This document shows, one piece after another, positions 24,542-61,964 of a DNA stretch of 64,000 nt. The stretch is from Candidatus Poseidoniales archaeon (GTDB taxonomy: Archaea > Thermoplasmatota > Poseidoniia > Poseidoniales > Thalassarchaeaceae). The notes beneath the pieces were generated by a model. It did not search any database, was not told the DNA's origin, and saw only the letters and a list, made by a program, of their open reading frames with translations. The position numbers and the translations under genes were made by a program. The stretch covers positions 5,366-69,365 of the forward strand of contig DUDF01000116.1 of the NCBI GenBank assembly GCA_012959435.1, read 5' to 3'. The stretch's first letter is position 1, and every line of letters begins with the position of its first letter.

Positions 24542-24634
24542 CTGACTCACCCCACGCTGATTGGTGACTGTCTGTCAATCTTGCCACTACTCAAGCGATA
24601 GAGTTCATCATCTAGCCACTCCTCGCAACTACCG

Positions 24635-43265: not shown

Positions 43266-43738
43266 GACGCAATTCAGAATTTATGCGCGATACTGTTGCC
43301 GCAGCCACCGAGTTAGGGTATGTGCTGACTTTCTTGCTTGGACTCTCATTCCTGTCAGTATTCAGTATTTGGACATGGGAACTTCAGGATGAGCGAGGAG
43401 ATGTATGGTTAGAACAGGCAATGGAGGAGAACTTAGATTCCATCGCAGAAGCAGTGGAACGAGCAGATCTTGCTAGCCGGCAGGAAGGTGATATCACCTA
43501 TGCTGAACCAGTTGACCTACTTTTATCTAAAGCAGTAAATCTTCAATTAAGATTAATATTAAACGATAATGAATTATTAATGCAAGATAAAGGTGAAACT
43601 TTGGTATTCTCAAGAGATATTTCGTCGGCTAGTGCCACCAACCATAGCGGAGAAGTAGAATTAGCTGGTTTACAACGAATATGGGTATTGCTTCAGGGAA
43701 ATAATGTAACTATCACCAGTAACCAACCAGGATTCTAG
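43262..43738 (+). CDS. Small pilin-like or N-terminally anchored protein, third gene of the operon
   Basis: MRRNSEFMRDTVAAATELGYVLTFLLGLSFLSVFSIW. The TTG start overlaps the upstream TGA. An alternative ATG at 43283 gives MRDTVAAA.... Confidence 0.5.
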   Translation: MRRNSEFMRDTVAAATELGYVLTFLLGLSFLSVFSIWTWELQDERGDVWLEQAMEENLDSIAEAVERADLASRQEGDITYAEPVDLLLSKAVNLQLRLILNDNELLMQDKGETLVFSRDISSASATNHSGEVELAGLQRIWVLLQGNNVTITSNQPGF

Positions 43739-46333: not shown

Positions 46334-49300
46334 TCACTGTTCAGGTATCCACTGGTTAGTCTCTGGGTCCCACTTCCAACCAGGGTAAGTGGGCTGTGGT
46401 TCAGCAACTGGTTGGGCTGGTGCAGCCACTTGGGCCTGCGCCTCTTCCTGGTTCGCCTTACCCCAAGCATATGGGTCCTCTTCAACTACTTCGTGCGCCT
46501 CAATATCTCCAATTTCCGGCTCATCTTCAAATTCCACGAAGAAGAACATGAATACGGCCCCAAGTCCGGCTAAGACAACTATGGCCAAGACTGCCCAAAG
46601 AACCCAACCTAATGCGCTCTCTTGCGCAGAAGCACCGACTTGTACTGAAAGGGAATCACCAGTAAAATCGCCGCCGTATTCAAATTTTACCTCATTCACT
46701 CCAGACTCTAACTTATTGCTTTGCACACTCATCATCCAAGTACCATCATCACCAACAATGGTATTGTTTAGACGAAGCCCTGTATTTGAGGAACGAGCGA
46801 CCACTTCAACACCTGGACGACCATGTCCTGTGAAGATAGCCGTATCACCAGCAGCAATCTCAGGAATCCCATCAATTCGTTCAACATCAAAAGAAACAGC
46901 CCGTACAATGAAGTCAATATTCATGGTACGAGCATTTGATGAGCCATCCTTTGCAATGAATTGCATTCCTTCACATGACCACAAATCAATATCAGTTGTA
47001 TGGAAAGACATCCCCACTGGGTCATATGTCACTTTACCATAAATATCAATGGAAATTAAATCAGCGCATAATTCATCATGCTGTAAATCACTGTTTGCAA
47101 TTATTTCAGGATCATCAAAGACATCGTAATCCAGTTGGTCACCATCTTCATCAGAGAAAAATGGTGGCAGTACTATACTTCCACCATTCCCACATCTGTC
47201 AAGAGCTTGACTTCCATCTTCACAGAAGATGATCACTTCCCCAACCCAACCTGTTGAGTTGAAAAGTGGTGCACGGTTATTTGCATCTAATGGATTATGA
47301 ATAATCACTTCAACCTCTTTCCATTCACTATATGAATGGCCATCGAACGAACGAGCGCTGATGAGATAGTGGAAATCATGGATCATGTTGCTAGTATCCC
47401 AAGTTGTACTCCAGAGACCATTAGATTCTATCACAGTCACGTAAGGAGGAGCATTCGGTAATTCACGTAGGGCATCTTGAGGGTCCCGGATACGAATTTC
47501 TACTCGACTTACTGCGCCATCTGTATCTCTGGCTATTCCTGAAATAACAGTGTCATGGCTTGCTGAAATTACTTCATCTTCATATGGTGAAAGTAACGAG
47601 AGAACAGGTGCAGCGTTGCTATTGTCAATATCAAGTTCTAGTGTTACAGTATCACAAGTGTCAATGTCTTCAAGACAATAACCAGAATCAGACGCCCAAA
47701 TTACGAAAGTCCATGTTTCACGAATGCTTGGCATTACTGAAAAGTCCCATTCCCACGACCACTCTGAAAGTGCACCAATTGGGTTACCCTCTGAGTCGAG
47801 TGGACGAACTATACTAGTGGTCGTAGTTATCCAAGTAGGGCTTGACATACGGAAATGAATCTCTTGAATATCACTTCCAAGTGCTCCATTGTAAGCATCA
47901 CTTGCACTACCAGAAAAGACCACTTTCCCAGAATTATGCATAGAACCATTGACTGGGGATGCAACGTTAATTGTTGGTGGGTTTGTGTTTAATTTGATGG
48001 TTTTTGTTACGATTGGGCTGTAATCCACCCCATCATAAGCCCTGAAATCAAAGGTATAATCACCTTCAGGTTGGTCAGCCATGTCATACTCAAAGTGCCA
48101 GTTTTTGAATGGCCTATTATTACGAGTTACTTCGCCGTTTGAACCACTATCATCAACAGCATAACGAACATCAACCCATGAACTTGAATCAGGTGTCTTG
48201 ACTTCAATTCTCTGAACTGTACCTTGCTGCTCCCATTGAGCTTGCTGAGCAGTTCCAAATACGCCAGTCCCAATATTCCCATCCCAAGCATACCCTGTGA
48301 AATTGACGTTACGAATGAACGAGTGCCCATCACTTTGGGTAACAACAACTGTTGGATTTAGATTAGTCATTGCAAGAGTATCCTCATAAGTTCCTGTAAG
48401 ATTAAATGATGACTTATGGTATCCTTTACCAAATTTGTAAGCTGTTACGAAGTATTTTGACAATTCTCTCGTACCTGCGCCAGCATTGCAATCAGGGTCA
48501 TCCAAATCGTATAATAAATCTCCATCGTTATCGATTCCGTCAGCACAAGAATCTTCGCCAACATCATCAGCAAATCCATCTGGATTATTCCCATTTCCTC
48601 TTATATCAAGATGGAAATCAGATGGTAATGCAACCCAAGGAGCAAATCCTTGTGTGTCTGTTTGCAGATTGTAAAGATCATTCCCATGAGCATCCTCTAG
48701 CAGAATTGTTGCACCTGGTACCCTTACACCGCCAACAGTAGCCCTGATACGAACTAAAGCTGCTTCACGAACTTGAACCGCCCATGGAGTTGGAAGAGCG
48801 CCAATTTCTATCTTGTTAAGGGATAATCCAGACATGTTTGCATAGGTAAAAACAGTAGAATTGTTTACCGCTTGTAACGATAATGGGAAATTCACAGGAG
48901 GAATTGATGCAGTAGGTGGAAGAATCACCTGATTGTCCCAATTATTGAACTGGAAAGCCTCTCCACGATCCCACACTAACTGAATAGGCCAATCTCCACC
49001 AGTAACTGTGGGTATTGTCTCTGACTGAACCGTCACAGAACTCTTGGTGATGTTGTAAACAATATCTGAAACACCGAGCCATTGATTCCCTGAGAAGAAC
49101 GCCAATGAAGCGTATGTATGCTCATGGTCAACAATTTTTGCACCTTCTCCACCGACAGTGAATTCATTGTCTTGTACATCTAGAAGTGAGCCAATTGCAC
49201 GGATTGCATCACCTGCAACTCCTGTCACAATATTTCTCTTGATAGATGCGCTAGCTCGGAAAACGTGGAAAGCAGGGCAGGGAAAATCTTCTTCGTCCCA

Positions 49301-50695
49301 AACAGTATCTGAGGAACATGTACCTGATACATTGTTGAAGACATTGTCATTGATAGTAGCCCTAGCAGGAGCAGGTCCACTGACTGACCAACCAGAATCT
49401 TGAAAGTGGTATTCACCAACAACTATTGGCTCCCGATTAATTTCTAGGAATGTATTATTGTCAATTTCCATGTCAAAGTAACCAACACCCCAAATTCCGT
49501 TGTATCCAGTAATGGGTCCAATAACGTTGTTCGTAAATCGAACCTGAGTAACGACACCTGCAGCACCAGAAGATGAAACCACTTGGATCCCTGAACCTTC
49601 TGCTGCACCACTCATCACATTTCCTTCAACATGAGCATATGCAGCATCGTAAACAGTTAATGGGGAATTGTCGCCTGTTATGATTGAGTTACTAATGACA
49701 TTCACTTTGTAGTCTGTGTTTGAGATAGACCTACGACCATTAAGATCAATTCCCGTACAATCTGTTGCTATTGTATTTCCACTAATAGTACCTGCTGAAT
49801 CAGTATATCTGTATCCATAATCGCCACTTGCTACGACCCCATGGTCAATGTTAGTGAATGACTTCTGAGCCCAAAGGACGTGACGTCCGTTGTCCTCGGA
49901 AGAACAACCGTTCTCAGTACCGGTAAAAACGGGACTTAGGAAACGCACTGGGCCACTCGGGCTTCCAGCACCATATGTTTGCACTGCATTCCCAGCTAGG
50001 CTAGAAATTACTTCATCTGAACCTACTTCAAAAGAGCCACCATTGAATGTTGGTGCTGCTAAATCAAGAACTAGAACGCTAGAAGTATTGATGCTGGTAA
50101 ATTCCATCTCAGTAAGAGTTGGACTTGCACCATCGAGAATAAATGCAGCCCAACGAATCTCCCCCAAATCAGCAACATATCGAGGCATACCATACGCATT
50201 CTCAACTGTAACGTGATTGAAACTGGTTTGAGCAATATCAACTGTGTCGCGCACTAGCACACCTTCAAAGCAAGAAGGGTCGGCATTCCACAGTGGCTGA
50301 CCACTTGATGGATTTATCATTTTGTAACAACGACCTGTCGCTGATTCGTTGGCAGGGTTACCCCATCTGAGGGTAATTCTGCTTGCATTACTGCCCATTC
50401 CATTTGCCCCACAAGAGGTATCTGCAGCACACAGGTTACCTTTCACATCCAAGTATGTACCATTGAGAAATGTTACTGTTGTCCCAGGCTGAATAATCAA
50501 TTTTGCACCCGGTGCAATCTCAACATCACCTGTCAGAGTGTGTCCACCCTGCCAAATTTCAGTTCCTGTAATCGTACCACTTGTAGTTTCATTACTTGCA
50601 ACTACAGTGGGTGTCAAAGTGACTAATGCAGTCATCGAACTAATCACAAATAAAGCGACTAGAAGAAGACTTGTGGTTCGGTTATTCGTTTCCAT
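46334..50695 (-). CDS. Giant (1453 aa) anchored surface protein with right-handed beta-helix (PbH1-like) repeats and Ig-like modules
   Basis: Signal peptide TTSLLLVALFVISSMTALVTL. Beta-helix rungs such as NVISNSIITGDNSPLTVYDAAYAHVEGNVMSGAAEGSGIQV and FTNNVIGPITGYNGIWG. Cys-flanked acidic module CADGIDNDGDLLYDLDDPDC. TM WVLWAVLAIVVLAGLGAVFMFFFV is followed by a ~67-aa acidic tail. Confidence 0.8.
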   Translation of the reverse strand: METNNRTTSLLLVALFVISSMTALVTLTPTVVASNETTSGTITGTEIWQGGHTLTGDVEIAPGAKLIIQPGTTVTFLNGTYLDVKGNLCAADTSCGANGMGSNASRITLRWGNPANESATGRCYKMINPSSGQPLWNADPSCFEGVLVRDTVDIAQTSFNHVTVENAYGMPRYVADLGEIRWAAFILDGASPTLTEMEFTSINTSSVLVLDLAAPTFNGGSFEVGSDEVISSLAGNAVQTYGAGSPSGPVRFLSPVFTGTENGCSSEDNGRHVLWAQKSFTNIDHGVVASGDYGYRYTDSAGTISGNTIATDCTGIDLNGRRSISNTDYKVNVISNSIITGDNSPLTVYDAAYAHVEGNVMSGAAEGSGIQVVSSSGAAGVVTQVRFTNNVIGPITGYNGIWGVGYFDMEIDNNTFLEINREPIVVGEYHFQDSGWSVSGPAPARATINDNVFNNVSGTCSSDTVWDEEDFPCPAFHVFRASASIKRNIVTGVAGDAIRAIGSLLDVQDNEFTVGGEGAKIVDHEHTYASLAFFSGNQWLGVSDIVYNITKSSVTVQSETIPTVTGGDWPIQLVWDRGEAFQFNNWDNQVILPPTASIPPVNFPLSLQAVNNSTVFTYANMSGLSLNKIEIGALPTPWAVQVREAALVRIRATVGGVRVPGATILLEDAHGNDLYNLQTDTQGFAPWVALPSDFHLDIRGNGNNPDGFADDVGEDSCADGIDNDGDLLYDLDDPDCNAGAGTRELSKYFVTAYKFGKGYHKSSFNLTGTYEDTLAMTNLNPTVVVTQSDGHSFIRNVNFTGYAWDGNIGTGVFGTAQQAQWEQQGTVQRIEVKTPDSSSWVDVRYAVDDSGSNGEVTRNNRPFKNWHFEYDMADQPEGDYTFDFRAYDGVDYSPIVTKTIKLNTNPPTINVASPVNGSMHNSGKVVFSGSASDAYNGALGSDIQEIHFRMSSPTWITTTTSIVRPLDSEGNPIGALSEWSWEWDFSVMPSIRETWTFVIWASDSGYCLEDIDTCDTVTLELDIDNSNAAPVLSLLSPYEDEVISASHDTVISGIARDTDGAVSRVEIRIRDPQDALRELPNAPPYVTVIESNGLWSTTWDTSNMIHDFHYLISARSFDGHSYSEWKEVEVIIHNPLDANNRAPLFNSTGWVGEVIIFCEDGSQALDRCGNGGSIVLPPFFSDEDGDQLDYDVFDDPEIIANSDLQHDELCADLISIDIYGKVTYDPVGMSFHTTDIDLWSCEGMQFIAKDGSSNARTMNIDFIVRAVSFDVERIDGIPEIAAGDTAIFTGHGRPGVEVVARSSNTGLRLNNTIVGDDGTWMMSVQSNKLESGVNEVKFEYGGDFTGDSLSVQVGASAQESALGWVLWAVLAIVVLAGLGAVFMFFFVEFEDEPEIGDIEAHEVVEEDPYAWGKANQEEAQAQVAAPAQPVAEPQPTYPGWKWDPETNQWIPEQ

Positions 50696-50879: not shown

Positions 50880-52130
50880 TCAAAGTCTTGCTCCAACAGC
50901 ATCTGACCAACTATCAGCATTGAGAGAGCCATACCCGTATCTCAGATGGTGCTCACCTTGTACTTGGAAAACCCCTGGTTCAGACGAATCGGCGAGTGCG
51001 GACTTCACTAATTGGATAGGTGAACGGTCTCCTTGGTGAGTGTGACTAAGTCCCGGGTTGCCATTGTATCTCTCAAGTATCAACGCAAGAGCACCGGTGA
51101 CAAACACTGTAGAATCACTGGTACCATCACTTCTTGACCATGTAGTCCCAGTTCTTTCTGAAACAAAAGTTGAGTGGATCTCAACCCCGGGGGCAACTAC
51201 TTCTGGTTTCTGATTTGGCCAAATTCTAGATTCGCCTGATGCATTGGTTGGCGAGCCTGAACTTGAAAATTGCCAAAGTGAATTATTGCGGTGGACTGCT
51301 CCGACTGCAATAACTCCATCAACATTAGCTGGTACTGTGACATCAGGATAATCTTGACCAGCGCCGCCGTGATTTCCAGCAGCAGCCACAACAAATATCC
51401 CATTATCGAGTGCATCGCTAACCGCGCCTTCTGTCCTACCACCAAATGTAGAAACTAAATCCGGTTTCCCACCAAGACTCAAACTAATGATATCCGCATC
51501 CTTTTTGGTCCAACACCATTCAATCGCATCAGCAACAGCAACCTCTGAGCCTGAACCACCATCTGCGCCAAGTGCTGCTGCAACAATTAATTGTACATTT
51601 GGAGCAGCGCCAATGAATGAGCCGTTAGCAACAAGAATACCGGCCATCATTGTCCCATGAGATTGTGTCAAATCATTGTCATGAGGGTTATCGGTCCCAT
51701 GAATAAAATCTCTGAAACCAACAAGATTAACCCCTACCAAATCAGGATGTGTCATATCTATTCCTGTGTCAACAATGCAAACACGTACTCCTTTACCACT
51801 ATATCCATCAGCATTCAAGGTGCGTATTCCTGCATTCTCATAAGCCCATTCTGATTCAGGGATGAACTCATCGAGGTAACCAATTATTGAACTATAACTA
51901 ATCACCAATGCCACAATTAATCCAACTAACATCCATAACCCCCAAGGGAGGTTCAGAGGTCGTTTCCTAGGTTTAACCGCATCCGCATCCTTCCATGCCT
52001 GGGGGTCCATTTCAGTAGGCATACCATATGCCTCCGCTGGGTATCCAGATGCACCCGGATCAATTGTGGAAAGCATCCGCGGGTCCTCTGGTTCTGGCAG
52101 AAATTCAACACCCTCCAAACCCGGTATCAC
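50880..52130 (-). CDS. Membrane-tethered subtilisin-like serine protease (S8)
   Basis: A ~55-aa cytoplasmic leader, then TM WGLWMLVGLIVALVISYSSIIGYL. S8 motifs follow: VCIVDTGIDMTHPDL (Asp), SHGTMMAGIL (His), VAAAGNHGG (Asn), DGTSDSTVFVTGALALIL (Ser). The GTG start is preceded by AGGTGA; an alternative ATG lies at 52076. Confidence 0.8.
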   Translation of the reverse strand: MIPGLEGVEFLPEPEDPRMLSTIDPGASGYPAEAYGMPTEMDPQAWKDADAVKPRKRPLNLPWGLWMLVGLIVALVISYSSIIGYLDEFIPESEWAYENAGIRTLNADGYSGKGVRVCIVDTGIDMTHPDLVGVNLVGFRDFIHGTDNPHDNDLTQSHGTMMAGILVANGSFIGAAPNVQLIVAAALGADGGSGSEVAVADAIEWCWTKKDADIISLSLGGKPDLVSTFGGRTEGAVSDALDNGIFVVAAAGNHGGAGQDYPDVTVPANVDGVIAVGAVHRNNSLWQFSSSGSPTNASGESRIWPNQKPEVVAPGVEIHSTFVSERTGTTWSRSDGTSDSTVFVTGALALILERYNGNPGLSHTHQGDRSPIQLVKSALADSSEPGVFQVQGEHHLRYGYGSLNADSWSDAVGARL

Positions 52131-52230: not shown

Positions 52231-55200
52231 TCAGAATGGCATCTGACCGCTGAGGGAATTACGAATTCTTCGGAATCCTAGGAATCCAATAATGAAAGCT
52301 GCTATGATTAACAACGGCACCCAAATATTTACCGATTCGGGAGGTGGTGTGGCAACCTTCAACGATCTTGTGATACTTTCATCAGAATCTTCATCTAAAT
52401 CAAGTCCGAACTCACTCTGTAAAGTAAACACGAAATTCTGCTTGCCAATGCCGACGCCATCTAAATCAATGAAGAGAATGTATTCAGCCGTATTTCCAAT
52501 TGCTATATCCTGTGATTCTGAAAGGATGTAAAGGTCATCATATCCTTCAATTGAAATGTTAACTCTGATGTTTTTTGCGTCAACAAGGCCAGTATTTTCA
52601 AGCGATACAATCATTTTGTTGCTTTTACCTCTAACGGCATCTTCACCATTAAATGTACCAGTATTATCTATTATGAAGTTCAGAAGTGGCTTCGCAGACT
52701 TAATCTGTAATTCGATTGGATCATAGGCAGTACCATCAGTGCTATTGATATTTACAGCAAGTGTAAATGCTGTAGTGTCAGCATCAGCAGGTGCAAAGAT
52801 AGTGAACGAATATGTTCTTTCTTCACCATATGCCCAAGGCGATTCACTAGGTCCTGTAGCACTCCATCCATCTGGTAACCATGCAGTGTCAATCTCAAAT
52901 CCAAGCATGTCTTGGCCATTTCCTGTATTCAGAATAACGAATTCAACACGCTTCTCTTCCCCAGGGAATACTCCAATAGTATCTCCAGGTGATGATACAA
53001 TCTCAATAGAGTAAGTCTGAGGGATGTGAATCTTCAGGACATATTCGCTGAATGTACCTGTTGAATGGGTTGTTCGTAGTTTGATGATGTGCCCGCCAGC
53101 AATTGACTGTGCGTTCTCAACATCGGCTGTTGTAACACGCATGCGTATTGAAGATGAGGCACCACCATCCAAACCAAGGGTCACGGGTGTTGTCTCGCTC
53201 CAAATTTCTGTACCATTCTCATCTGTCCCATTATAGAACTCGATATTCCAGTAATCAACATCTTCTGCATCGAAGACTGTCCCGACCGTATACTCATCAA
53301 AGGCTTCGTTACCGTTGTAAGTCAAATTAACATTGAACTCTATCACTTGGTAAGCAGTTTCATTATCATATAATGCATTAACTTCCTCATTACTATCATC
53401 TGTTTGATTTGCCCCACTAATTGATGTGATGTTGAAGTCAATCGAGTGTTCAAGGATACGATTGTAATTGAAGGTCACTGCAGGAGCTTCTTGTTGAGCA
53501 GAAATAGTACTGGTCAACCCCGCTCGGTAAACCATTGCCATCCCTCGCTCATTGGTCTCAAATACGCCCTCAAGGTAAATGTCTCCACTAGGTAATAAGA
53601 AGTTAATTTGTCCATTAGAGTCAACTGTTTCGTTCCAACTAACTCCTAAGATGGTCACTTTAATTTCAGGTGAACCGAATATTTCTGCACCAGAAACACT
53701 AGTCTCACTCAAATCATGGCTCTCACCATTAAAGTCAATCCAGTTTGTGCTGAGTACCAAAGTCCCTCCTTGAATCATAGTCAAGTTCATTTGCGCACCA
53801 TCGTGGACGTCAGCCTCAACAATTGTAATCCCAACAATTCCTTCATCAACAACTGTTGCAGAAAGAATCCAATCACCGGGTTCAACATCAGCAGTCCACT
53901 CGCCATCCCAAGAGCCATCGTTAGCCATCACCTTAGTAGGTGTACGGGAATCTCTCTCGATTCCTGACGCAGGTATTAGAGTTAGGACAACATCATCTGA
54001 GAACTCATCCCAAACTTCCATTTGCACATAATCAACAATTCCAGAAATTGTAACATTACCTGCTGATAACTCAAGGTCTGTAGAGTTAGAAACTGTTGTC
54101 ACTTGAGCAACAATCGACACCGAAGAGAACCCAAGTTGAGATGCCTCAATAGAGTAATTGTTTTGTGACGGCACAAATAATTGCCATGTACCATAGGAAG
54201 AACTAGTCAAGTTCACAGGTGTATCAAGACCTCCTCCCGAGACGGTGATGTTTGCGCCTTCAACACCTTCGTTGAAATCGTACTCGTCATCAGAATCTAA
54301 GTCCCAGAACAAGTTACCTCCAAGGGTAACCCAATGTTCTACTGAGAAGTTAATGATTGAAAGGTTTTGACCGGCAGATAATGTTGCTAGTTGTTGATCA
54401 TCCAACACCCACCTATCCATTGATTCAGAGCGGTTTAGCGCTACAACCCAATCACCGGGGAATAGGTAACCAACCATATCTCCTTGATCGTTCGTGTACG
54501 GCAGTACTACCTCGCCATATCCATCTGAGCTAGTTGCAATTAGTGAGAAACCGGTCAACGGGTCACCTGTATCACCTTCAGAAAGGTGGATTGCTACTTC
54601 AGCAGATTCCAACGAGCGCCATATCAAACCTGTTCTAGATGATGTTTCATTCGTTGTAAGTGCAACTCTAAATTGTTCATATGTGTCCGCAACCAAAGTT
54701 CTGTCAACTATGACTACCCAATCACCCTCAGGTATGTAATCTGAAATTGTTCCGTTTTCATCCGCTAATATTTGGAATGTATCCTCAGAATCAACCGAGT
54801 TAAAGATGACTGTTATGTTATCTAGAATACCACCTGATTGATTGGTTAAATTTGCTTCTAACTTCCACAATGGTTCAAGTATCAATTCTGCATACTCTGT
54901 TGTGGTGTTATCCAATCCTAATTCAAGAATTAATTCATTGTCAATTAGAACTGTATCAAAGTCAGAGCCATTTACCTTGTCTTGTGCATCAATTGCGATT
55001 GTGTATACACCTGGTTGCAATGAAGCGTTGTAATGTCCATTTGACATCTCATCTGCTGTGACGTTCAATCTTGTACCAACTCCTCCTCCAGAAATCGGTA
55101 CGAATGCAAAATCAATACTGACAAATGTGCCATTACTACTGTTCCCATCAAGTGAATGGTCTAGGAAGGCAGTAATGTCCACAGTGATGTTGTCAGGGTT

Positions 55201-58200
55201 TGCTATCAACTCCACGCGAGAAAGTTCTTCGAGGTTTATATCTGATACTTCTAATAGTAATTCATCAACATTTAGTCTATCATCTGAGACATCAAATGTC
55301 CAATTACCCTGCATCAACTTCTGTGAAAAGCGCCCTGTTTCAGGATCAATATCAAAGTACCAATGTACACCTCTATCAACCTGATATGCATGCAATTGCA
55401 CTTCAGTAAACCCAGGGATATTCGGCGTATAGGCAGTTTGGTTCTCAAATAGGTAAAGCATACCATCTACCAACAACCCTTCTTCTAAGTGAAGAATGAC
55501 TGGTGCCATACCATCAGAAACCATGAAATTGGTGCCATTTGACATTTGATTTGCAATTGATGTGGTGGTCATATTTACATCTACACCTTCAGGTAAGAAC
55601 ACTGAGAAATTACCTGCTTCGGAGCCATAACCTGTTTGGACTGAAGTTGTGATTCCGCCCCATTGGAACTTTACCTCAATATTTGGAACACCTTCATCGG
55701 GTGACTCCTCTTTCCCAGTTTCAACAAGAATTTGACCGGTGACGTTGATGCTTCTCCTCAGCATCCAATTGATGTCTGTGATGTCCTCTGTCAACTCAAA
55801 TTCTTCCCACAGTAACAAATCACCATCGGAAGATGTGTTGGCAACCCACTCGCCTTCTGGCAATTCAACCCGATAAGTACCTGTTTCATTATCATAAATT
55901 GCTTCAACATATTCGTCGTCTGATAATACCGGACCATGGAAATTGATAACTGCATCAGTAACTGGTTCGACTGAACCGCCACCGGCATCCTTCATCAGTG
56001 TGAATTCCATGTCAAAATGCATAGGAACTGCGGCATCACTGCTCGCCATTGTGAAATTCGTTGGGTCGATTGTAGCAGCGACTGCAGCTCTACCATCACA
56101 GAAATTGGCTGTAGCAGGAGTTATCCAAGGAATACATTCGTTGAATCCATCGCCATCAGCATCCATAACCATCTCGTATGAACCATCAGGAATAGGCCCA
56201 TAACCAAATGAACCATTCTCATCAGTATAGATGATACAGGGAGCAAATATAGCCTCAGTGCAAGGTTCTGTTGCCTCTTCATCAATGCTTACTTCAGTTA
56301 GGTACAATTCAGTATTTGCAATTGGCGAACCATTGAACCAAACTAGTTCACCATCGAGTCGAGAACCCGGTAGACGTAATTCAACTCCACTAGTTGGAGT
56401 CGTATCAACTTCAAGTGGAGTACTCAATCTAGTGATATTCCCATTTGGAAGAATAACATAAACTCGGTATGAGCCAGGTAATGCGTCAACTAAGTGGAAT
56501 GTACCGGGCTCAACCATTGGGCCGTTGAAAATACCAGCACCGCTGAATGTGCCACTACCGTTGATTGTACCGTATGTTTCAAGACTCTCATCAGTCCCAT
56601 CGGTGAAGAATATACCGTTGCCTACAAGTGTTTCACGGTATAATGTTGCAGTGTAATCAACTGAACCATTTGCAGTTACTTTACCTGTACCGTCAAAAGT
56701 CCCTGAGAACAAGTATGTAACTGGATCTGAATCCGCCAATGTACATATTTCAGAGGGTTCAGGGATTGTGTTATTAACACATGTTGGAATTATTTCACCA
56801 CTTGTGATATCGCCAACGAATTGACCTGCACCAGAGAATTTCCCAACCCCTGTAAATGAGTGATTATTTGCAATCTGTCTTGTGTAGTTACCAGTGAAAT
56901 CAGACACTAATACCTCGCCTTCAGTAACTACCAAACCAGCACCAGTAAAGGTCACCTCACCTTCACCACGGAACACACGTGGATATTCATCGGTTGACAC
57001 AACTGTACCATTAGTAGTCCAGATATGCCCTAGTTCTTCTTCTGTCCAAATATCAGTAAAAATCAATTCATGGGAACTCAAAGGTGTCCCATCAAATGAT
57101 GAGTGCCCTTCCCAAGTAACAATTCCTGTCGCACTGGATGCTTCAATTGACAATGACTTCGAAATAACTGCACCACCATTGGTATCTGCTTGCGCACCAG
57201 TGACATTGAAATCCATCTCTCCGAGTAACTTCCCACCACTAACATTTGCCAAAATTCCAGTGATTGGATTAACTGACCTACTACCATCTTCATCAGTGCT
57301 TTGGCCTAAAACATCTGAAAACCATCCTTGCCATTCTTGGAAGTTGCTTTGTGCTGAGACGATTGCGTCACGGTCTTGATTACGCAAAACCTGTGCATCT
57401 TCTGCAAATCCAGAGAATGCTGTTACGCGAATGTGACCTGCTGGAACGCGGAATTCAAACCGTCCATTCTCGTCTGCATCAACTGAACCAATTGGGATCC
57501 AATATTCTCTTGGGTCCTCATCAAAGATATCTTCACCACTGTAAGCGTCACGTTCAATCAATAGACGTGCCTTCGGGACTACTCCGAAGTCACCTAATTT
57601 GACTTCACCACTTAGGGTAGCACCACTGTAGTACTTGAGTATCTTTACACCTGTGTTCGCATCATACCAAGGAGTGGTTTCGGTGGCTTCATCATTATAC
57701 CAATTCGCGATAACAAAGTTAGGCATCATAGCACCGGGAAGCGGGTATGCATACTGCAAACTGCTGTTCGTACTACCTCTTAGGTCAAAGTGCTGACCTG
57801 GCTGAGCAACCTTCCCAGGGAGACCCAATTGTGAACTACCGTAGCCAACATAAGCGCGGGCAACCATAGTTTCAAAGAATTCAGGCTCTTGATCAACCCG
57901 TAAGTCAACTGCTTGAATAATGTCCCCTGTGTTCTGTGATTGACTGAGTATGAGATCATTCTTGTATTGCTCTTCATATTCAGCTTGAGTCATGTCAACA
58001 AAGAAGTTTGAACTACCTCTCTGAGTAACATACCACGTCTTCATGTATGTCTCAGGGTCAAGACCAGCAAGTGTGGTAGGTGCATAGAAAATCCCCGTTG
58101 GATTACCACCACTACTCTGGTATGAGCCGCCTGTTGGATACAGACGATTATCAACTCCGAAATAACGAATATCGTGGTTTCTAGTAATAGTATCTCCAGG

Positions 58201-61200
58201 GCTACCCTCTGAATCTTCAACAATGTAGGTGACATCATTTGTTAATTGATGATAAATATCAACTAATTCAGGCATATCCATTACAGTAGTCAAGAAAACC
58301 CTACCTAGTGCTAAGCGGGCGTTCTGCCTGTGGATTGAAGATGATACATCATCAAAATCCTCAACTATGTCCTTTGTGTACCAATAATTACCAATTACTT
58401 GGTGACTAAACTTATTAACAACTTCATCGTTACGATCCTTTGATTGATTGAACTGAATCAATGCATCATTTTTATTGTTAAAATCGCCACCTATTTGCTC
58501 CTCACTATCATACACACGATAGATTGTAGCAGATGTTGGCATTCCGTTGTAGTCAAGCACGTGCCCCTCGCCAAGTGCAATTGCACCTGCTTTCTTAGTA
58601 ATTGAGAATGAACGAGATTTTAACTCATCAACCCCATTATCTCCACCTAGAGTGTTTAGAAGTAGGAACTCCTCAATTTGACTGTCAGTAAAATGCTTCT
58701 CTAAAGTGCGCTGGAAGTCAGGTGTAAATGTGCCACCATTGTATCTCAAATCACCTTCTGCAATCGTCATAGTGTAAAGTGAAAGCAAATCTTGGTCACT
58801 TTGTGCCAACAACATATTTCCAGCAGCAGGAATTCCGGACTGGAAGTTATCAGCGACTGTTGGATGCTTTCCTTGAGCCAATGCTTGGAATCCATAATCC
58901 CACCATGATACGAATGCTGGCCTTTGTCCAAACGGTACATCAGCGTCCTGCTCTTCAAGCCATTGATATCCCTCATTCCAAGATTCACCATTGAATCCAG
59001 GTCCAAAGGCACCCATGTACCAACAACTGCTTTCCTTTGCGCTACCGCGGCAATGGTTCGCTGGGTTGTACTGAGTAGAATCTAGGAAAGACCAACCAAA
59101 GATTGGATCTTCTGCACGCAGAATATTAGGTGTTATATTGTAAATATTTGAATCAATATCCTTTGCCTTTGAGTTCCCTGATGGAACCCCTGAGTCTAAT
59201 CCGTAGGTTGCGTGTTGTGCACCTACTAACATGAAAATCATCAGAACTGCAAGCACTCCAGGATATTTCCTAGCAGTCTTGGTAGTTGAGGAAAAGCGAG
59301 CTCTAGGAGAGCCGATACCGAGTCTGCGCCAAGCCTTGGCGAAATCAGTACCCCCTACCCACTGCCACATGATGACAAATGCCCAAGCACCCATCACTGC
59401 AACTGGAGGCGTTGCGTTGAAAATGAATCTACCAGCGCGCCATGCCATCACTCCTGCAACCAAAATCCAGATTGCTAGAACTAACCTACTACTATCACGA
59501 CGGCGCATGCCTTGCCAAAGTGCAATGAATCCAGCAAATAATGCTGCCAATGCTACTATTGGACCAAAGGATGCGAATAGCATTGCTCGACTTGGAGCCT
59601 GTGCTTCAGCGATAGTATCGAAAATTTTGTTCTTTGATAGATAGAAACCACCAGTAAAGAGAACATCCCAACCATTGTATATCCCCAAAAATTGAATCAA
59701 CCAAAGAGCACCGAGGATTACACCCGCTAGCGCACCTCCGCTAACCAATACCAGAAGCCATGGTTTGTCACGGAAAGAAACAGCGACCCACCCTGCTATA
59801 AATGTGAATCCGACAATGTAGAACATTGGTTGGAAACCACTCGCATCGAATACCAGTCCCAGTTGCATATGAGCATAGAATGGTAATGGAAGTAAGAATG
59901 TGACCAACATCATTGTCATTGCAGTAACATACAATGCCATGCTGTCACGTCTGCGGAATTGATTCATCACAATCTGAGCGAAGAACGCCAAGAAAACGAT
60001 TCCAAGACCATAAACGAACCCTTTCCATCCTAGAGCAACAGTAGAAAATGCAACACCTGAGAGAATAGCATTAGCAATTGCTCCTTGTCGCTTTTCAAAT
60101 GTGGCTTTGATTCCTTTGAATAAATAGGCAGGTGACCAATTTGCATTAGCCACCATTTTATCGTCCCCTGCTGCCTTTACTGCTTTCAACCAGAAGTAGA
60201 AACCTAGTGATAGGAACAAGATTGCAAATGCATCGTGGTCAGCCAAAGCAAAGGTGCTGTGACCAACGTGCCCTGGCATCAGAGCAATCAACCATGCCGC
60301 AACTGCACCAGTAGCACGACCGAAGAATCGGTTACCAATTCCTGCAATAGGTAGCACAGTTAGTGCACCATAAATTGCAGGAAGAGCCGCCACAGACCAC
60401 CAAACAGCGTCAGATGCTGGGACACCTAGCAAAGGTGCTAGAATCATGCCACCAACAGCAAGACTCCATGAAAACAAAGGTGGACGAGGGTTGATTGCAC
60501 CTAATGGGTAAGAACGATCCATGTCGATGAGGAAGTGGTTGTGCTCTGCAAGGATGTATTCAACCGTACGCATCATGTACCATGGGTCAGAACCACCAGT
60601 CAAGTCCCATTCATGGGTACCAGTAGAGTTCATGAATGGAAGAACATTCCATACCACACGAACTAGCAAACCAGACAAAAGAGCAGAACCTACGGTAATA
60701 CCATACCAATGCTCCTTCCAAAATTGCTTAGCCAATCCTGGTGTTCTTCTTGGTGAACCATCACCCAATTTTCCTTTGACACTTAGCATCACAACTAGCA
60801 CATTAAGCCAGAAGAAGATGAAGAACCAAACAAACAGACCATTATTCCCGGAGAAATATGAGTGCCATTCTTGTGAACCATTCATTATGATTCCATTCTC
60901 GTGGAAAGAACCGGCTGAGTAAATTAACCAGTTCATAGCGATTAAACCGCCACGTGTCCGCATATTTTCTGCAAAGCAATATGCAGTGAATAATGAGATT
61001 ACACCAGTAAATAGTGGCCACCATACTCCGATTGTATCACCTGAAATTCTCTGTGCTTCTGTTGCTGAGAAGAAAGATGATTCTGAAATCAGGTGGGCTA
61101 GAAGCCAAACACCAAATGCAGCAAACAACGGAATGAATGCTTTATCGTTGATTTTCTCTGGCAGGCTGGAAAACCAACCCTTTGTACTAGGCTTAACAAA

Positions 61201-61824
61201 TCTACCACGAATACCGAGTGTGACGAGCACACCGGTTAAGATAGATATCATCCAGCCGTTAAAGAACAGGAAAGCGGTTGCTTCCCTGTGCCCATCCATT
61301 GCGCCCCAGTAGTTCTCTGTTAGGTCAGGTAGCCAAGCACCGTTCACGAACTGAGTACCGTCCCAAAAAGGGGCAGCAACAGCTGCAAATGAAAGCGCAG
61401 CATAGAAGCCCATTACAATCCAGATGAGTAGGTTTGCTTCATCGTTACGACCTACTCTGTCAAACATGTGTACTCCGAATGCTAAAATCAGGAATAACAC
61501 TCCAAGTAGAGTATTCCCTAAAACCAACTGCGGAATCGCTGCTGCGAGTACTAGTGGCGCGAAGATTAGCAATGTGACCTGTGCAGGTTTCACTCCGAGG
61601 TTGGAGAAGACGATTCGTGGCACACTACCGAACATTGCACCGATCGTGAGTAACACGAACGGCAATACTTGCGTCATTATTGCTGTCTCTTTATCATAGG
61701 TCACACCCAGTGGATACATTGCCATCGTCATTAGCAGCAGAATAAGTGCTGCCAATGGTGCTCTAGCAAGCCCCCACACTACATTACGTAGCGCAGATGC
61801 GTTTCCTTCATTTTCCATTTCCAT
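52231..61824 (-). CDS. aglB: Giant oligosaccharyltransferase AglB/STT3 fused to an extra N-terminal polytopic domain and a ~1800-aa beta-sandwich stalk with a C-terminal TM
   Basis: STT3 hallmarks are all present: GGSDPWYMMRTVEYIL, LADHDAF, DTIAEAQ and SWWDYGFQ (58891..58905). Downstream lie at least ten CarboxypepD_reg/Cna-B-like repeats and two CARDB-like modules. The terminal TM is IWVPLLIIAAFIIGFLGFRRIR. The track start at 61896 is TTG; I use ATG 61824 (MEMENEG). ATG 61818 has better spacing from GAGGT. Confidence 0.85.
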   Translation of the reverse strand: MEMENEGNASALRNVVWGLARAPLAALILLLMTMAMYPLGVTYDKETAIMTQVLPFVLLTIGAMFGSVPRIVFSNLGVKPAQVTLLIFAPLVLAAAIPQLVLGNTLLGVLFLILAFGVHMFDRVGRNDEANLLIWIVMGFYAALSFAAVAAPFWDGTQFVNGAWLPDLTENYWGAMDGHREATAFLFFNGWMISILTGVLVTLGIRGRFVKPSTKGWFSSLPEKINDKAFIPLFAAFGVWLLAHLISESSFFSATEAQRISGDTIGVWWPLFTGVISLFTAYCFAENMRTRGGLIAMNWLIYSAGSFHENGIIMNGSQEWHSYFSGNNGLFVWFFIFFWLNVLVVMLSVKGKLGDGSPRRTPGLAKQFWKEHWYGITVGSALLSGLLVRVVWNVLPFMNSTGTHEWDLTGGSDPWYMMRTVEYILAEHNHFLIDMDRSYPLGAINPRPPLFSWSLAVGGMILAPLLGVPASDAVWWSVAALPAIYGALTVLPIAGIGNRFFGRATGAVAAWLIALMPGHVGHSTFALADHDAFAILFLSLGFYFWLKAVKAAGDDKMVANANWSPAYLFKGIKATFEKRQGAIANAILSGVAFSTVALGWKGFVYGLGIVFLAFFAQIVMNQFRRRDSMALYVTAMTMMLVTFLLPLPFYAHMQLGLVFDASGFQPMFYIVGFTFIAGWVAVSFRDKPWLLVLVSGGALAGVILGALWLIQFLGIYNGWDVLFTGGFYLSKNKIFDTIAEAQAPSRAMLFASFGPIVALAALFAGFIALWQGMRRRDSSRLVLAIWILVAGVMAWRAGRFIFNATPPVAVMGAWAFVIMWQWVGGTDFAKAWRRLGIGSPRARFSSTTKTARKYPGVLAVLMIFMLVGAQHATYGLDSGVPSGNSKAKDIDSNIYNITPNILRAEDPIFGWSFLDSTQYNPANHCRGSAKESSCWYMGAFGPGFNGESWNEGYQWLEEQDADVPFGQRPAFVSWWDYGFQALAQGKHPTVADNFQSGIPAAGNMLLAQSDQDLLSLYTMTIAEGDLRYNGGTFTPDFQRTLEKHFTDSQIEEFLLLNTLGGDNGVDELKSRSFSITKKAGAIALGEGHVLDYNGMPTSATIYRVYDSEEQIGGDFNNKNDALIQFNQSKDRNDEVVNKFSHQVIGNYWYTKDIVEDFDDVSSSIHRQNARLALGRVFLTTVMDMPELVDIYHQLTNDVTYIVEDSEGSPGDTITRNHDIRYFGVDNRLYPTGGSYQSSGGNPTGIFYAPTTLAGLDPETYMKTWYVTQRGSSNFFVDMTQAEYEEQYKNDLILSQSQNTGDIIQAVDLRVDQEPEFFETMVARAYVGYGSSQLGLPGKVAQPGQHFDLRGSTNSSLQYAYPLPGAMMPNFVIANWYNDEATETTPWYDANTGVKILKYYSGATLSGEVKLGDFGVVPKARLLIERDAYSGEDIFDEDPREYWIPIGSVDADENGRFEFRVPAGHIRVTAFSGFAEDAQVLRNQDRDAIVSAQSNFQEWQGWFSDVLGQSTDEDGSRSVNPITGILANVSGGKLLGEMDFNVTGAQADTNGGAVISKSLSIEASSATGIVTWEGHSSFDGTPLSSHELIFTDIWTEEELGHIWTTNGTVVSTDEYPRVFRGEGEVTFTGAGLVVTEGEVLVSDFTGNYTRQIANNHSFTGVGKFSGAGQFVGDITSGEIIPTCVNNTIPEPSEICTLADSDPVTYLFSGTFDGTGKVTANGSVDYTATLYRETLVGNGIFFTDGTDESLETYGTINGSGTFSGAGIFNGPMVEPGTFHLVDALPGSYRVYVILPNGNITRLSTPLEVDTTPTSGVELRLPGSRLDGELVWFNGSPIANTELYLTEVSIDEEATEPCTEAIFAPCIIYTDENGSFGYGPIPDGSYEMVMDADGDGFNECIPWITPATANFCDGRAAVAATIDPTNFTMASSDAAVPMHFDMEFTLMKDAGGGSVEPVTDAVINFHGPVLSDDEYVEAIYDNETGTYRVELPEGEWVANTSSDGDLLLWEEFELTEDITDINWMLRRSINVTGQILVETGKEESPDEGVPNIEVKFQWGGITTSVQTGYGSEAGNFSVFLPEGVDVNMTTTSIANQMSNGTNFMVSDGMAPVILHLEEGLLVDGMLYLFENQTAYTPNIPGFTEVQLHAYQVDRGVHWYFDIDPETGRFSQKLMQGNWTFDVSDDRLNVDELLLEVSDINLEELSRVELIANPDNITVDITAFLDHSLDGNSSNGTFVSIDFAFVPISGGGVGTRLNVTADEMSNGHYNASLQPGVYTIAIDAQDKVNGSDFDTVLIDNELILELGLDNTTTEYAELILEPLWKLEANLTNQSGGILDNITVIFNSVDSEDTFQILADENGTISDYIPEGDWVVIVDRTLVADTYEQFRVALTTNETSSRTGLIWRSLESAEVAIHLSEGDTGDPLTGFSLIATSSDGYGEVVLPYTNDQGDMVGYLFPGDWVVALNRSESMDRWVLDDQQLATLSAGQNLSIINFSVEHWVTLGGNLFWDLDSDDEYDFNEGVEGANITVSGGGLDTPVNLTSSSYGTWQLFVPSQNNYSIEASQLGFSSVSIVAQVTTVSNSTDLELSAGNVTISGIVDYVQMEVWDEFSDDVVLTLIPASGIERDSRTPTKVMANDGSWDGEWTADVEPGDWILSATVVDEGIVGITIVEADVHDGAQMNLTMIQGGTLVLSTNWIDFNGESHDLSETSVSGAEIFGSPEIKVTILGVSWNETVDSNGQINFLLPSGDIYLEGVFETNERGMAMVYRAGLTSTISAQQEAPAVTFNYNRILEHSIDFNITSISGANQTDDSNEEVNALYDNETAYQVIEFNVNLTYNGNEAFDEYTVGTVFDAEDVDYWNIEFYNGTDENGTEIWSETTPVTLGLDGGASSSIRMRVTTADVENAQSIAGGHIIKLRTTHSTGTFSEYVLKIHIPQTYSIEIVSSPGDTIGVFPGEEKRVEFVILNTGNGQDMLGFEIDTAWLPDGWSATGPSESPWAYGEERTYSFTIFAPADADTTAFTLAVNINSTDGTAYDPIELQIKSAKPLLNFIIDNTGTFNGEDAVRGKSNKMIVSLENTGLVDAKNIRVNISIEGYDDLYILSESQDIAIGNTAEYILFIDLDGVGIGKQNFVFTLQSEFGLDLDEDSDESITRSLKVATPPPESVNIWVPLLIIAAFIIGFLGFRRIRNSLSGQMPF
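58891..58905 (-). other. WWDYG catalytic motif of the OST domain
   Basis: The reverse complement of tccataatcccacca is TGG TGG GAT TAT GGA, encoding WWDYG. Confidence 0.9.
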
Positions 61825-61964
61825 TACCTCGGTTGTTGTCAGTCTTACGACCTTCAGCGTGGCCGCCACCTGACCCCTTTTTTTAACCGTTGCCAAACGA
61901 ACGCACGCACACCCACACGCACGTAGGGGGTAAAGCCGTAGTCCAACACTTGGTATTTTATTCT

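Follow-up and report, generated by a model that had tools for sequence, protein, structure and literature searches.

In the solved structures of AglB, PglB and STT3, the active site is built from loops of the transmembrane domain and from the WWDYG motif that follows TM13. The NCBIfam family TIGR04154 (archaeo_STT3) describes the oligosaccharyltransferase (OST) associated with the archaeosortase A system of haloarchaea and methanogens. Archaeal S-layer glycoproteins, such as the SLG of Haloferax volcanii with its PGF-CTERM, are large, acidic, heavily N-glycosylated and anchored at the C-terminus. The Poseidoniales are uncultured and among the most abundant archaea of the surface ocean, and we know of no experimental work on their cell envelope. 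When MGIIb genus O1 is transcriptionally active, its enriched genes include one for an OST (PMC9723583). The AglB paralogues of A. fulgidus are 591–868 aa long (PMC3703281), consistent with the ~600–1100 residues that the initial annotation of the locus studied here gave for characterised AglBs.

The window analysed is a stretch of 64,000 nucleotides from a Candidatus Poseidoniales archaeon (Marine Group II, Thalassarchaeaceae-like). As initially annotated, a single minus-strand frame runs without interruption through 52231..61824 and encodes 3,197 aa. The frame is open over 52231..61896(-), or 3,221 codons if counted from a TTG; translation from the ATG at 61824 yields 3,197 aa, 100% identical to the deposited P0001, and homologues have N-termini that fit this start. 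Predicted helices and positive-inside loops gave a topology of 10+13+1 TM helices (24 TM), with the N-terminus and the C-terminal tail inside. The results support a complete AglB/STT3 enzyme module inside one giant polypeptide that is membrane-anchored at both ends. The features of the gene and its neighbours are as follows.

52231..61824, minus strand: entire gene for the giant AglB/STT3 (3,197 aa and stop codon)
60736..61824, minus strand: N-terminal extension, residues 1–363, ten predicted TM helices, N-terminus inside (AF2 helices)
59203..60735, minus strand: STT3 transmembrane (GT-C) domain, residues 364–874, TM1–TM13 (Pfam STT3; TIGR04154 partial match; Foldseek; PDB sequence matches)
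60571..60588, minus strand: EL1 acidic motif DPWYMM, residues 413–418
60232..60240, minus strand: second acidic motif D529-H530-D531, invariant
59605..59616, minus strand: TIXE motif in EL5, T737-I-A-E740; T, I and E invariant
58891..58905, minus strand: WWDYG motif, residues 974–978, after the last TM helix, invariant
57397..59202, minus strand: external OST part, residues 875–1476: WWDYG core, helical/beta insertion, alpha/beta unit, first CarboxypepD_reg-like sandwich (~1370–1471)
57250..57396, minus strand: helical insert or hinge between OST module and stalk, residues 1477–1525 (AF2 secondary structure)
56515..57237, minus strand: Poseidoniales-specific beta module(s), residues 1530–1770
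53005..56514, minus strand: ~12–13 beta-sandwich modules (CarboxypepD_reg/CnaB/transthyretin-like), residues 1771–2940
52750..52968, minus strand: NPCBM_assoc (NEW3)/FixG_C-like Ig module, residues ~2953–3025
52420..52686, minus strand: CARDB-like module, residues ~3047–3135
52276..52332, minus strand: C-terminal TM helix, residues 3165–3183
52234..52275, minus strand: cytoplasmic basic tail ending ...PF; F3197 kept in at least 97% of the family
50880..52100, minus strand: adjacent S8 subtilase, predicted to have a cytoplasmic tail at the N-terminus, a single TM helix and its catalytic domain outside
46334..50695, minus strand: secreted Big_7/beta-helix protein of 1,453 aa, likewise conserved in this gene string

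Mis-assembly or a fused gene call was rejected as the source of this long ORF, its probability being close to nil; nothing was found in its favour, and independent homologues refute it. An independent 74-kb contig carries the identical protein, and UniRef/nr has a homologue from uncultured marine group II/III with 91% identity over the full length. Full-length protein clusters, more than 110 in number (3,122–3,302 aa), were collinear with the window protein, with few gaps at either junction, and GC content was even across the whole gene. Scanning the GTDB species genomes with family-specific patterns gave 465 matching stretches, and all of the 80 examined belonged to Poseidoniales; the examined genomes of Marine Group II (Poseidoniales) all kept the giant STT3. 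No frameshift, stop or assembly join, which the initial annotation had treated as fatal to its reading, was found at either junction. Its proposal that enzyme and scaffold are one polypeptide is supported at the gene level by the shared collinear architecture of these clusters and stretches.

A Pfam STT3 (PF02516) search of the ORF, proposed as a check at the outset, gave a match of 54.5 bits against a cut-off of 24.5, covering 340 of the 405 profile positions. All four motifs (DPWYMM, DHD, TIAE and WWDYG) lie at exactly the coordinates first annotated. Among 113 full-length homologues with overall identity down to 36%, D413, D529/H530/D531, T737/I738/E740 and W974–G978 were invariant or at least 97% conserved. 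The invariant D413 (in GGSDPWYM) aligned with the first Asp (chain residue 49) of the human STT3A motif DPYFNY, and D529-H530-D531 aligned with the D-N-E of STT3A. In a Foldseek search with the AF2 model of residues 1–1200 (pLDDT 73, pTM 0.70), ranks 1–18 were all AglB, STT3 or PglB; AfAglB (5gmy/3wak/7e9s) came top (E 2.1e-10), and the matches also included STT3A/B, yeast Stt3 and PglB. The OST ectodomain contained 3 sequons versus 4.5 expected. Homology to relatives from other Thermoplasmatota extends to residue 1476.

For the DK/MI motif of the Ser/Thr pocket, no conserved DxxKxxx(M/I) or MxxI was recognisable by sequence in the family alignment, the sole candidate being D1152/D1159...H1165-R1166 on helix 1163–1181. 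This would agree with a catalytically dead STT3 module kept as a scaffold while another AglB carries out N-glycosylation, as would a TIGR04154 score far under the cut-off (192 vs 450 bits) and the low pLDDT of the catalytic loops in the truncated model. However, variant DK motifs cannot be identified without a three-dimensional structure (PMC3703281), all catalytic and metal-binding residues were invariant in the 113 sequences, and conservation within the protein peaked in the core (median identity 52–56% vs 27–31% in the stalk). Judged from motif invariance and core conservation in the sequences, a dead enzyme appears highly improbable, and this reading was rejected.

The N-terminal extension is specific to Poseidoniales and missing in relatives from other Thermoplasmatota. 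A separate 10-helix membrane module at this end was not part of the initial annotation. Its conserved residues are R126-x-E128-E129, R180, R206-G207, W269, E286, W299, W333 and F338. The module had no PDB sequence match at E ≤ 10 and no consistent Pfam match among 18 members, and hhalign found it unrelated to the STT3 TM domain and without internal duplication. The Foldseek query that covered it was the whole 1–1200 model. A search of a 5.8-billion-protein index with an 18-sequence profile of the module returned only a same-family fragment and was uninformative, as candidate selection was evidently swamped. The N-terminal module probably acts on the membrane side of catalysis, in complex assembly or lipid-carrier handling.

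The stalk (residues 1477–3164) is an acidic array of ~18 beta-sandwich modules, ~1,690 residues long and extracellular by topology. The AlphaFold model of residues 1201–2400 (pLDDT 82.5) was all-beta from ~1390, with about ten modules by 2380, and Foldseek matched it to tandem CnaB/Ig arrays. A G-x-P-x-G-type motif occurred 9 times versus 0.87 ± 0.92 in shuffles. At least ten beta-sandwich repeats had been claimed before any of these searches, and that claim holds. The only module above its Pfam threshold was a CarboxypepD_reg (PF13620) at residues 2518–2579 (40.1 bits, cut-off 32.3), and weak matches to the same family (E 0.01–0.06) fell at ~1447–1478 and ~1866–1891. When compared with the stalk profile by hhalign, this Pfam-positive sandwich found two or three relatives only; a sliding-window all-against-all profile comparison linked about eight segments at 50–90% probability. 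The repeats are too diverged for counting by sequence, so the module count rests on AF2 secondary structure. A DxDxDG-like site lies at 1888–1896 within the 1771–2940 array. The Poseidoniales-specific residues 1530–1770 contain G-rich GxGxFxG motifs, strands of 14–19 residues, Cys1682/Cys1694 and the near-invariant sequons N1540 and N1755.

Two CARDB-like modules had been proposed near the C-terminus. The second appears to be CARDB, and the first NPCBM_assoc-like instead. The window protein scored just below threshold for CARDB (PF07705, 20.7 vs 22.7 bits) and NPCBM_assoc (PF10633, 21.9 vs 24.4 bits), and aligned homologues scored above it (CARDB, 23–30 bits in 7 of 10; NPCBM_assoc, 31–33 bits in four). 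The final TM helix claimed for the protein is present at 3165–3183, and the ending of TM helix, RR and ...PF is common to all Poseidoniales members. The PGF tripeptide is absent before the C-terminal TM helix of the window protein, which reads ...PPPESVNIWVPLLII...RRIRNSLSGQMPF.

Acidic residues far outnumber basic ones in the stalk (D+E 16% vs K+R 4%), and its 50 N-X-S/T sequons, versus 17.7 ± 3.7 expected, make it the densest sequon carrier within the window. The other large surface proteins of the window are likewise acidic and sequon-rich. Across the family the median was 43 stalk sequons (range 29–66), and at 23 sequon columns at least half of the sequences (50%) agreed, N1540, N1755 and N2231 being examples of conserved sites. 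Stalk length had a CV of 1.5% despite identity dropping to ~27–31%.

The stalk could be mainly an adhesion or particle-binding organelle resembling the CnaB/MSCRAMM arrays of Gram-positive bacteria, with the STT3 module, still an OST, as its anchor and export device. Foldseek matched it best to adhesins and pilins of bacteria (TIE, SdrD B domains, SpaC, BcpA), and its acidity and sequon content resemble those of the other large surface proteins of the window. However, a membrane anchor at each end leaves no free tip, profile searches of the stalk recognised no ligand-binding head domain, and both length and domain order are nearly invariant, properties in which adhesins usually vary. We give this function a small probability only.

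The relatives in other Thermoplasmatota are shorter. Those of 2,100–2,800 aa lack the N-terminal module and end in a TM/basic tail or in PGF-CTERM, several with PGFE/PGFG. Still shorter relatives, of ~1,100–1,290 aa, also exist; they stop after a few sandwiches and have no anchor. Downstream of the giant gene, the S8 gene follows directly in all four Poseidoniales loci that extend far enough, with identities of the giant protein to the window protein down to ~37–44%. These observations bear on whether the gene product is a polyprotein. After STT3-mediated membrane insertion and glycosylation, the subtilase next door would cut it near the hinge (~1477–1530) into an ordinary-sized AglB and a C-terminally anchored S-layer-like glycoprotein. 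The predicted topology of the subtilase permits such cleavage, the helical insert divides the OST module from the stalk exactly where homology to the shorter relatives stops, the PGF-CTERM of some relatives is an archaeosortase signal typical of S-layer glycoproteins, and the relatives of ~1,100–1,290 aa, with their few sandwiches, are unanchored. On the other hand, P0137, the only locus examined from another Thermoplasmatota lineage, has no S8 neighbour, and the sequences showed no conserved motif recognisable as a cleavage site. Gene order is generally conserved here, with purD upstream of the giant gene in 74 of 74 loci, so that adjacency alone is a weak argument, and a fixed 1:1 stoichiometry speaks against a bulk S-layer subunit. 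We consider a cleaved precursor rather unlikely, with a chance that still deserves weight.

The explanation that we favour, and hold to be probable, is a permanent fusion of an active OST with a surface scaffold that is self-glycosylated, doubly anchored and fixed in length. The enzyme would act at the membrane surface as other AglBs do, moving glycans from their dolichol carrier onto the N-X-S/T sites of exported proteins. The stalk would emerge right beside the active site and, given that position and its sequon density, would be glycosylated in cis or by neighbouring copies. With both ends anchored in the membrane, a glycosylated stalk would have to close into an arch or loop of fixed contour length on the cell surface, a geometry predicted from topology only. 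The arch may serve as a scaffold or spacer of a glycocalyx or pseudo-periplasm while still attached to the enzyme. Some points count against this explanation: the DK/MI motif was not identified by sequence, the 1:1 ratio of enzyme to scaffold is unusual for a structural surface protein, and a membrane-anchored subtilase is conserved next door; cleavage by it is a live rival.

The initial annotation had also suggested that the stalk sets glycosylation at a distance from the membrane, which is unsupported, the stalk being C-terminal to the catalytic module. A stalk that lifts the active site off the membrane was rejected: the site consists of TM-domain loops and the WWDYG motif directly after TM13, so catalysis stays at the membrane surface.

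A broader version, which we offer as a speculation with only a slim chance of being right, makes the giant STT3 the glycoprotein that defines the envelope of Poseidoniales; shorter forms would do so in many members of the Thermoplasmatota that are wall-less or poorly characterised. It would be a self-contained "enzyme plus product" machine. The 10-TM module would handle the lipid-linked glycan by flipping or carrier recycling, the core would glycosylate its own emerging stalk of 1,700 residues, and the arch would set the thickness of the pseudo-periplasm or glycocalyx as a functional analogue of the eukaryotic spacer NOMO (nodal modulator), which is located next to the OST and translocon, possibly with an evolutionary connection.

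In every Poseidoniales genome examined, the putative N-glycosylation enzyme has two fused parts, an orphan 10-TM module and a doubly anchored ectodomain of 1,700 residues that is rich in sequons and constrained in length. If this holds, the textbook view of AglB as a stand-alone enzyme of 600–1,100 residues is incomplete for the phylum-level radiation of Thermoplasmatota, and Poseidoniales cells have in the giant protein a concrete candidate for their main surface scaffold. It is a natural enzyme-substrate fusion for the study of cis-glycosylation, and a NOMO-like rod beside STT3 is a lead on how the accessory components around the OST and translocon of eukaryotes arose. The initial annotation had allowed that the protein might prove real without being new. 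Its sequences are indeed deposited already, in hundreds of MAGs, under generic names ("STT3 domain-containing protein" and similar); the architecture itself appears to be undescribed, as no published description was found in the literature accessible without subscription on N-glycosylation in MGII, Poseidoniales or Thermoplasmatota, which yielded just the report of an OST among transcripts cited above.

Among known systems, AglB is the best structural match of the giant protein. A. fulgidus AglB-L (868 aa; PDB 3WAJ/3WAK/5GMY/7E9S) shares with it the 13-TM GT-C domain, the external domain after TM13, the EL1 Asp, D-x-D, TIXE and WWDYG. The giant protein is 3.7 times longer and adds the 10-TM N-terminal module, ~18 beta-sandwich modules, a second membrane anchor and insertions of ~140 residues in the external core. 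Identity is only ~18–19% over the structure-based Foldseek alignment, and the DK motif is unrecognisable. TIGR04154 was the best NCBIfam match (residues 406–1035 in ORF numbering), but its 192.5 bits fall far short of the 450 required, and the window protein is therefore not a member. Some giant Thermoplasmatota relatives end in the ArtA signal PGF-CTERM, whereas the window protein has no PGF.

The Thermoplasmatota giants that combine STT3 with CarboxypepD_reg have a homologous OST module (29–39% identity over residues ~375–1480) that is followed by a long stalk of beta-sandwiches and, at the C-terminus, by a TM/basic anchor. One of them, MFA5772382.1 of a Thermoplasmata archaeon, is annotated as "carboxypeptidase regulatory-like domain-containing protein". 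At 2,100–2,800 aa they have neither the 10-TM N-terminal module nor the 1530–1770 module, and their shorter stalks are only weakly collinear with that of the window protein (~20% identity). Like S-layer glycoproteins, the giant stalk is large, acidic, sequon-enriched and anchored by a C-terminal helix. Unlike them, it has no signal peptide of its own and runs directly on from the putative glycosylating enzyme.

The family profile also matched a PDB chain of NOMO2 (9C7V chain B, E 1.2e-5), and Pfam NOMO_3rd/5th matches were weak (E 0.04–0.07), with faint to weak precomputed matches in relatives; a shared fold alone may account for this similarity. NOMO differs from the giant stalk in being a separate protein with its own signal peptide and no STT3 fusion. 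In the BOS complex of eukaryotes, NOMO is likewise a rod of tandem CarboxypepD_reg/transthyretin-like sandwiches with a C-terminal TM anchor, and it likewise stands on the extracytoplasmic side of an OST-containing membrane.

The minus-strand frame of the giant AglB/STT3 oligosaccharyltransferase (OST) gene was open between a TTG at 61896 and the stop codon 52231..52233. Translation likely starts at the ATG at 61824, giving a product of 3,197 aa, and residues are counted from this codon. Homologues begin with the equivalent Met, and the deposited protein P0001 ('hypothetical protein CXT67_01920', from a 74-kb contig of a MAG) has the same length and sequence as this product. The motif coordinates in the initial annotation were all exact, corresponding to DPWYMM 413-418, DHD 529-531, TIAE 737-740 and WWDYG 974-978. 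GC content was uniform along the gene. A search of 5.8 billion proteins matched >110 clusters of 3,122-3,302 aa, aligning 95-99% of the query at identities down to 36%, from many independent assemblies. Their sources were named marine group II/III euryarchaeote, Candidatus Thalassarchaeaceae or Poseidoniales, and the proteins 'STT3 domain-containing protein', 'dolichyl-phosphooligosaccharide-protein glycotransferase' or 'hypothetical protein'. The initial annotation had asked for a check of the junctions on either side of the OST core; 113 full-length members aligned with MAFFT showed few gaps at both. Scanning one genome per GTDB species gave 465 stretches that code for relatives; the top 80 all came from Poseidoniales, with both families represented. 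The independent clusters, the 113-member alignment and the 465 stretches rule out an assembly artefact.

The Pfam STT3 model scored 54.5 bits on the giant protein (threshold 24.5). NCBIfam TIGR04154 scored 192 bits, far under its cut-off of 450, which places the protein in the STT3 family, outside the TIGR04154 subfamily. PDB sequence searches matched human STT3A/B, yeast Stt3, A. fulgidus AglB-L and the C-terminal domains of AglB-S; D413 paired with the leading Asp (chain residue 49) of DPYFNY in STT3A, and D529-H-D531 with D-N-E. In an AlphaFold2 (AF2) model of residues 1-1200 (pLDDT 73, pTM 0.70, 44 aligned sequences), TM1 spanned 364-399, with the STT3 helices after it, and Foldseek ranks 1-18 were OSTs only, led by AfAglB (E 2e-10). 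Across the 113 homologues, D413, D529/H530/D531, T737/I738/E740 and W974-G978 were invariant or at least 97% conserved. Median identity to the window protein was highest of all regions in the core (52-56%, vs 27-31% in the distal stalk). No DK/MI Ser/Thr-pocket motif could be located in the giant protein, as expected, because recognition of variant DK motifs took crystal structures (PMC3703281). The OST portion is almost certainly a catalytically active AglB, and a pseudo-enzyme is less likely.

An exhaustive HMMER search with residues 370-1010 found 870 representatives with a related core, in three size classes.

Size classes of proteins with a related core
3,150-3,230 aa: Poseidoniales
Mostly 2,000-2,800 aa: core identity 29-39%
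~1,100-1,290 aa: chain stopping after a few sandwiches, unanchored

The second class came from MAGs named Thermoplasmata, labelled Methanomassiliicoccales or of other Thermoplasmatota, and was annotated as 'carboxypeptidase regulatory-like domain-containing', 'STT3 domain-containing' or 'glycosyltransferase family 39' proteins. In BLASTP, the homology common to 96 relatives of 2,000-2,800 aa spanned ~375 to ~1480; it thus includes the first CarboxypepD_reg-like sandwich and sets the boundary of the OST module (residues 364-1476).

The N-terminal extension (residues 1-363) was missing from all non-Poseidoniales relatives, in which the core begins at residue ~40-150. The AF2 model predicted ten helices (pLDDT mostly 70-94), and K/R-rich loops lay at 206-227 and 350-363. 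From this we infer an N-in, 10-TM domain that would leave STT3 TM1 normally oriented. Conservation was weak (median identity 27%), with R126-x-E128-E129, R180, R206-G207, W269, E286, W299, W333 and F338 conserved. No consistent Pfam match was found in 18 members, nor any PDB sequence match, and profile comparison detected neither likeness to the STT3 TM domain nor internal similarity.

The stalk (residues 1477-3164) was modelled in part with residues 1201-2400 (pLDDT 82.5).

Features from residue 1201 to the C-terminus
First element of the AF2 model of residues 1201-2400: alpha/beta unit
Residues ~1370-1471, same model: sandwich
Residues 1477-1525, same model: helical insert
After the helical insert, same model: all-beta region, ~ten modules by residue 2380
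Residues 1530-1770, window 56515-57237 (minus strand): Poseidoniales-specific module
Window 52234-52360 (minus strand): C-terminal 40 residues

Judged by size, there is room for about eight or nine further modules in the last 780 residues, for a total of ~18, in agreement with the 'at least ten' repeats of the initial annotation. Its two CARDB-like modules are the last two, one NPCBM_assoc-like and one CARDB, just sub-threshold in the window protein and above threshold in aligned homologues. Foldseek likened the stalk model to tandem Ig/CnaB arrays (B. anthracis TIE, SpyCEP, SdrD B domains, Gram-positive pilins); a reading as an adhesin is less likely. Support for the repeats was weaker from sequence than from the model: one CarboxypepD_reg match above threshold (2518-2579) and two sub-threshold, weak NOMO_3rd/5th matches, a NOMO2 PDB match with the family profile (E 1.2e-5), nine occurrences of a repeat-motif regex (0.87±0.92 in shuffles) and ~eight segments linked to each other by hhalign. 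The module at 1530-1770 had repeated GxGxFxG motifs, very long predicted strands (14-19 residues in the unusual segment 1616-1767), a conserved Cys pair (1682/1694), two near-invariant sequons and no family match. Another module carried DADGDGFNE (residues 1888-1896, window 56137-56163, minus strand), an invariant D-x-D-x-D-G-x-x-E segment that is probably a calcium-binding loop.

The stalk was very acidic (D+E 16% vs K+R 4%) and contained 50 N-X-S/T sequons, vs 17.7±3.7 expected from composition, the highest density among large proteins of the window; the OST ectodomain had 3, vs 4.5 expected. Stalk sequons numbered 29-66 across the family (median 43), with 23 columns conserved in at least 50% of members and N1755, N2231 and N1540 in 100%, 100% and 96%. 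Stalk length was 1,618-1,763 aa (CV 1.5%, 113 homologues) despite identity down to ~27-31%. The final TM helix of the initial annotation was located at residues 3165-3183, followed by RRIRNSLSGQMPF. In all Poseidoniales members the C-terminus consisted of the TM helix, a basic cluster and (A/Q/M)PF, of which PF was invariant, and a (R/K)SP(P/A)VE-like juxtamembrane motif preceded the helix. This motif and PF may form a lineage-specific sorting or retention signal. Other large proteins of the window had no comparable tail.

The neighbours of the giant gene include CDP-archaeol synthase and purD, which marks the organism as an archaeon. In 74/74 loci with sufficient flanking sequence, purD was the same-strand gene immediately upstream. 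On the downstream side, the window and 4/4 loci reaching so far (identity to the window protein down to ~37-44%) shared an S8 subtilase, a beta-helix/Big_7 protein (~1,420-1,470 aa) and an HTH-AAA-TPR regulator. The HTH, AAA_16 (STAND-like) and TPR protein (43745-46264, minus strand) belonged to the same string as the giant STT3, S8 and beta-helix genes in every Poseidoniales locus examined and may act as a regulator of this surface-protein cluster. Beyond it, three consecutive ORFs of 339, 737 and 158 aa (40033-43738, plus strand) each opened with a short charged stretch and then a hydrophobic helix, resembling the class III signal peptides of archaeal type IV pilins; one matched DUF7289 weakly. 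The cassette was absent from the syntenic locus L001, where a metallo-beta-lactamase gene directly follows the TPR regulator. Two more giant signal-peptide proteins, of 1,857 aa (27242-32815, minus strand) and 1,910 aa (33004-38736, minus strand), had no Pfam match. The latter was very acidic (D+E 19%) with 37 sequons (17±3.5 expected), and L001 encodes a 1,916-aa protein at the equivalent position. A family 2 glycosyltransferase gene lay ~28 kb from the OST gene (23483-24550, minus strand); beside the OST gene itself, no further obvious agl-type genes for glycosylation were apparent.

The subtilase ORF (50880-52130, minus strand) probably starts at TTG 52100, because homologues start MPEPED. 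The type II membrane protein that it encodes has a cytoplasmic N-tail of ~55 residues (conserved PEPEDxR(I/M)L...DP), a single TM helix and a catalytic domain on the outside. The main alternative reading is that this adjoining protease cuts at the hinge, releasing a normal AglB and a C-terminally anchored surface glycoprotein; the subtilase was missing from the single second-class locus examined, and we consider such cleavage rather unlikely. Solved OSTs build their active site from loops of the TM domain together with the WWDYG segment immediately following TM13, so the stalk cannot shift catalysis off the membrane, and the earlier proposal to that effect was rejected. The stalk starts beside the active site, is the window's densest sequon carrier and is re-tethered to the membrane at its far end. 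The simplest interpretation is a fixed-length arch that is glycosylated by its own enzyme. The arch would stay joined to the enzyme as part of the surface coat or a pseudo-periplasm.

The gene itself is not new, its sequences being public under generic annotations; what appears undescribed is the architecture. Full-text searches of non-subscription literature yielded no paper on an AglB that is giant and doubly anchored, on the N-terminal module or on the sequon-rich stalk, and a 2024 review of archaeal N-glycosylation does not mention such giant forms. The sole mention found was of an OST gene enriched in transcripts when MGIIb genus O1 was active (PMC9723583). A TM helix and basic tail are likewise found at the C-terminus of the 2,100-2,800-aa relatives, several of which have a bona fide PGF-CTERM, so that double anchoring is old and conserved in this protein lineage. 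Some relatives in other Thermoplasmatota carry PGF-CTERM where the Poseidoniales proteins have their PF end.
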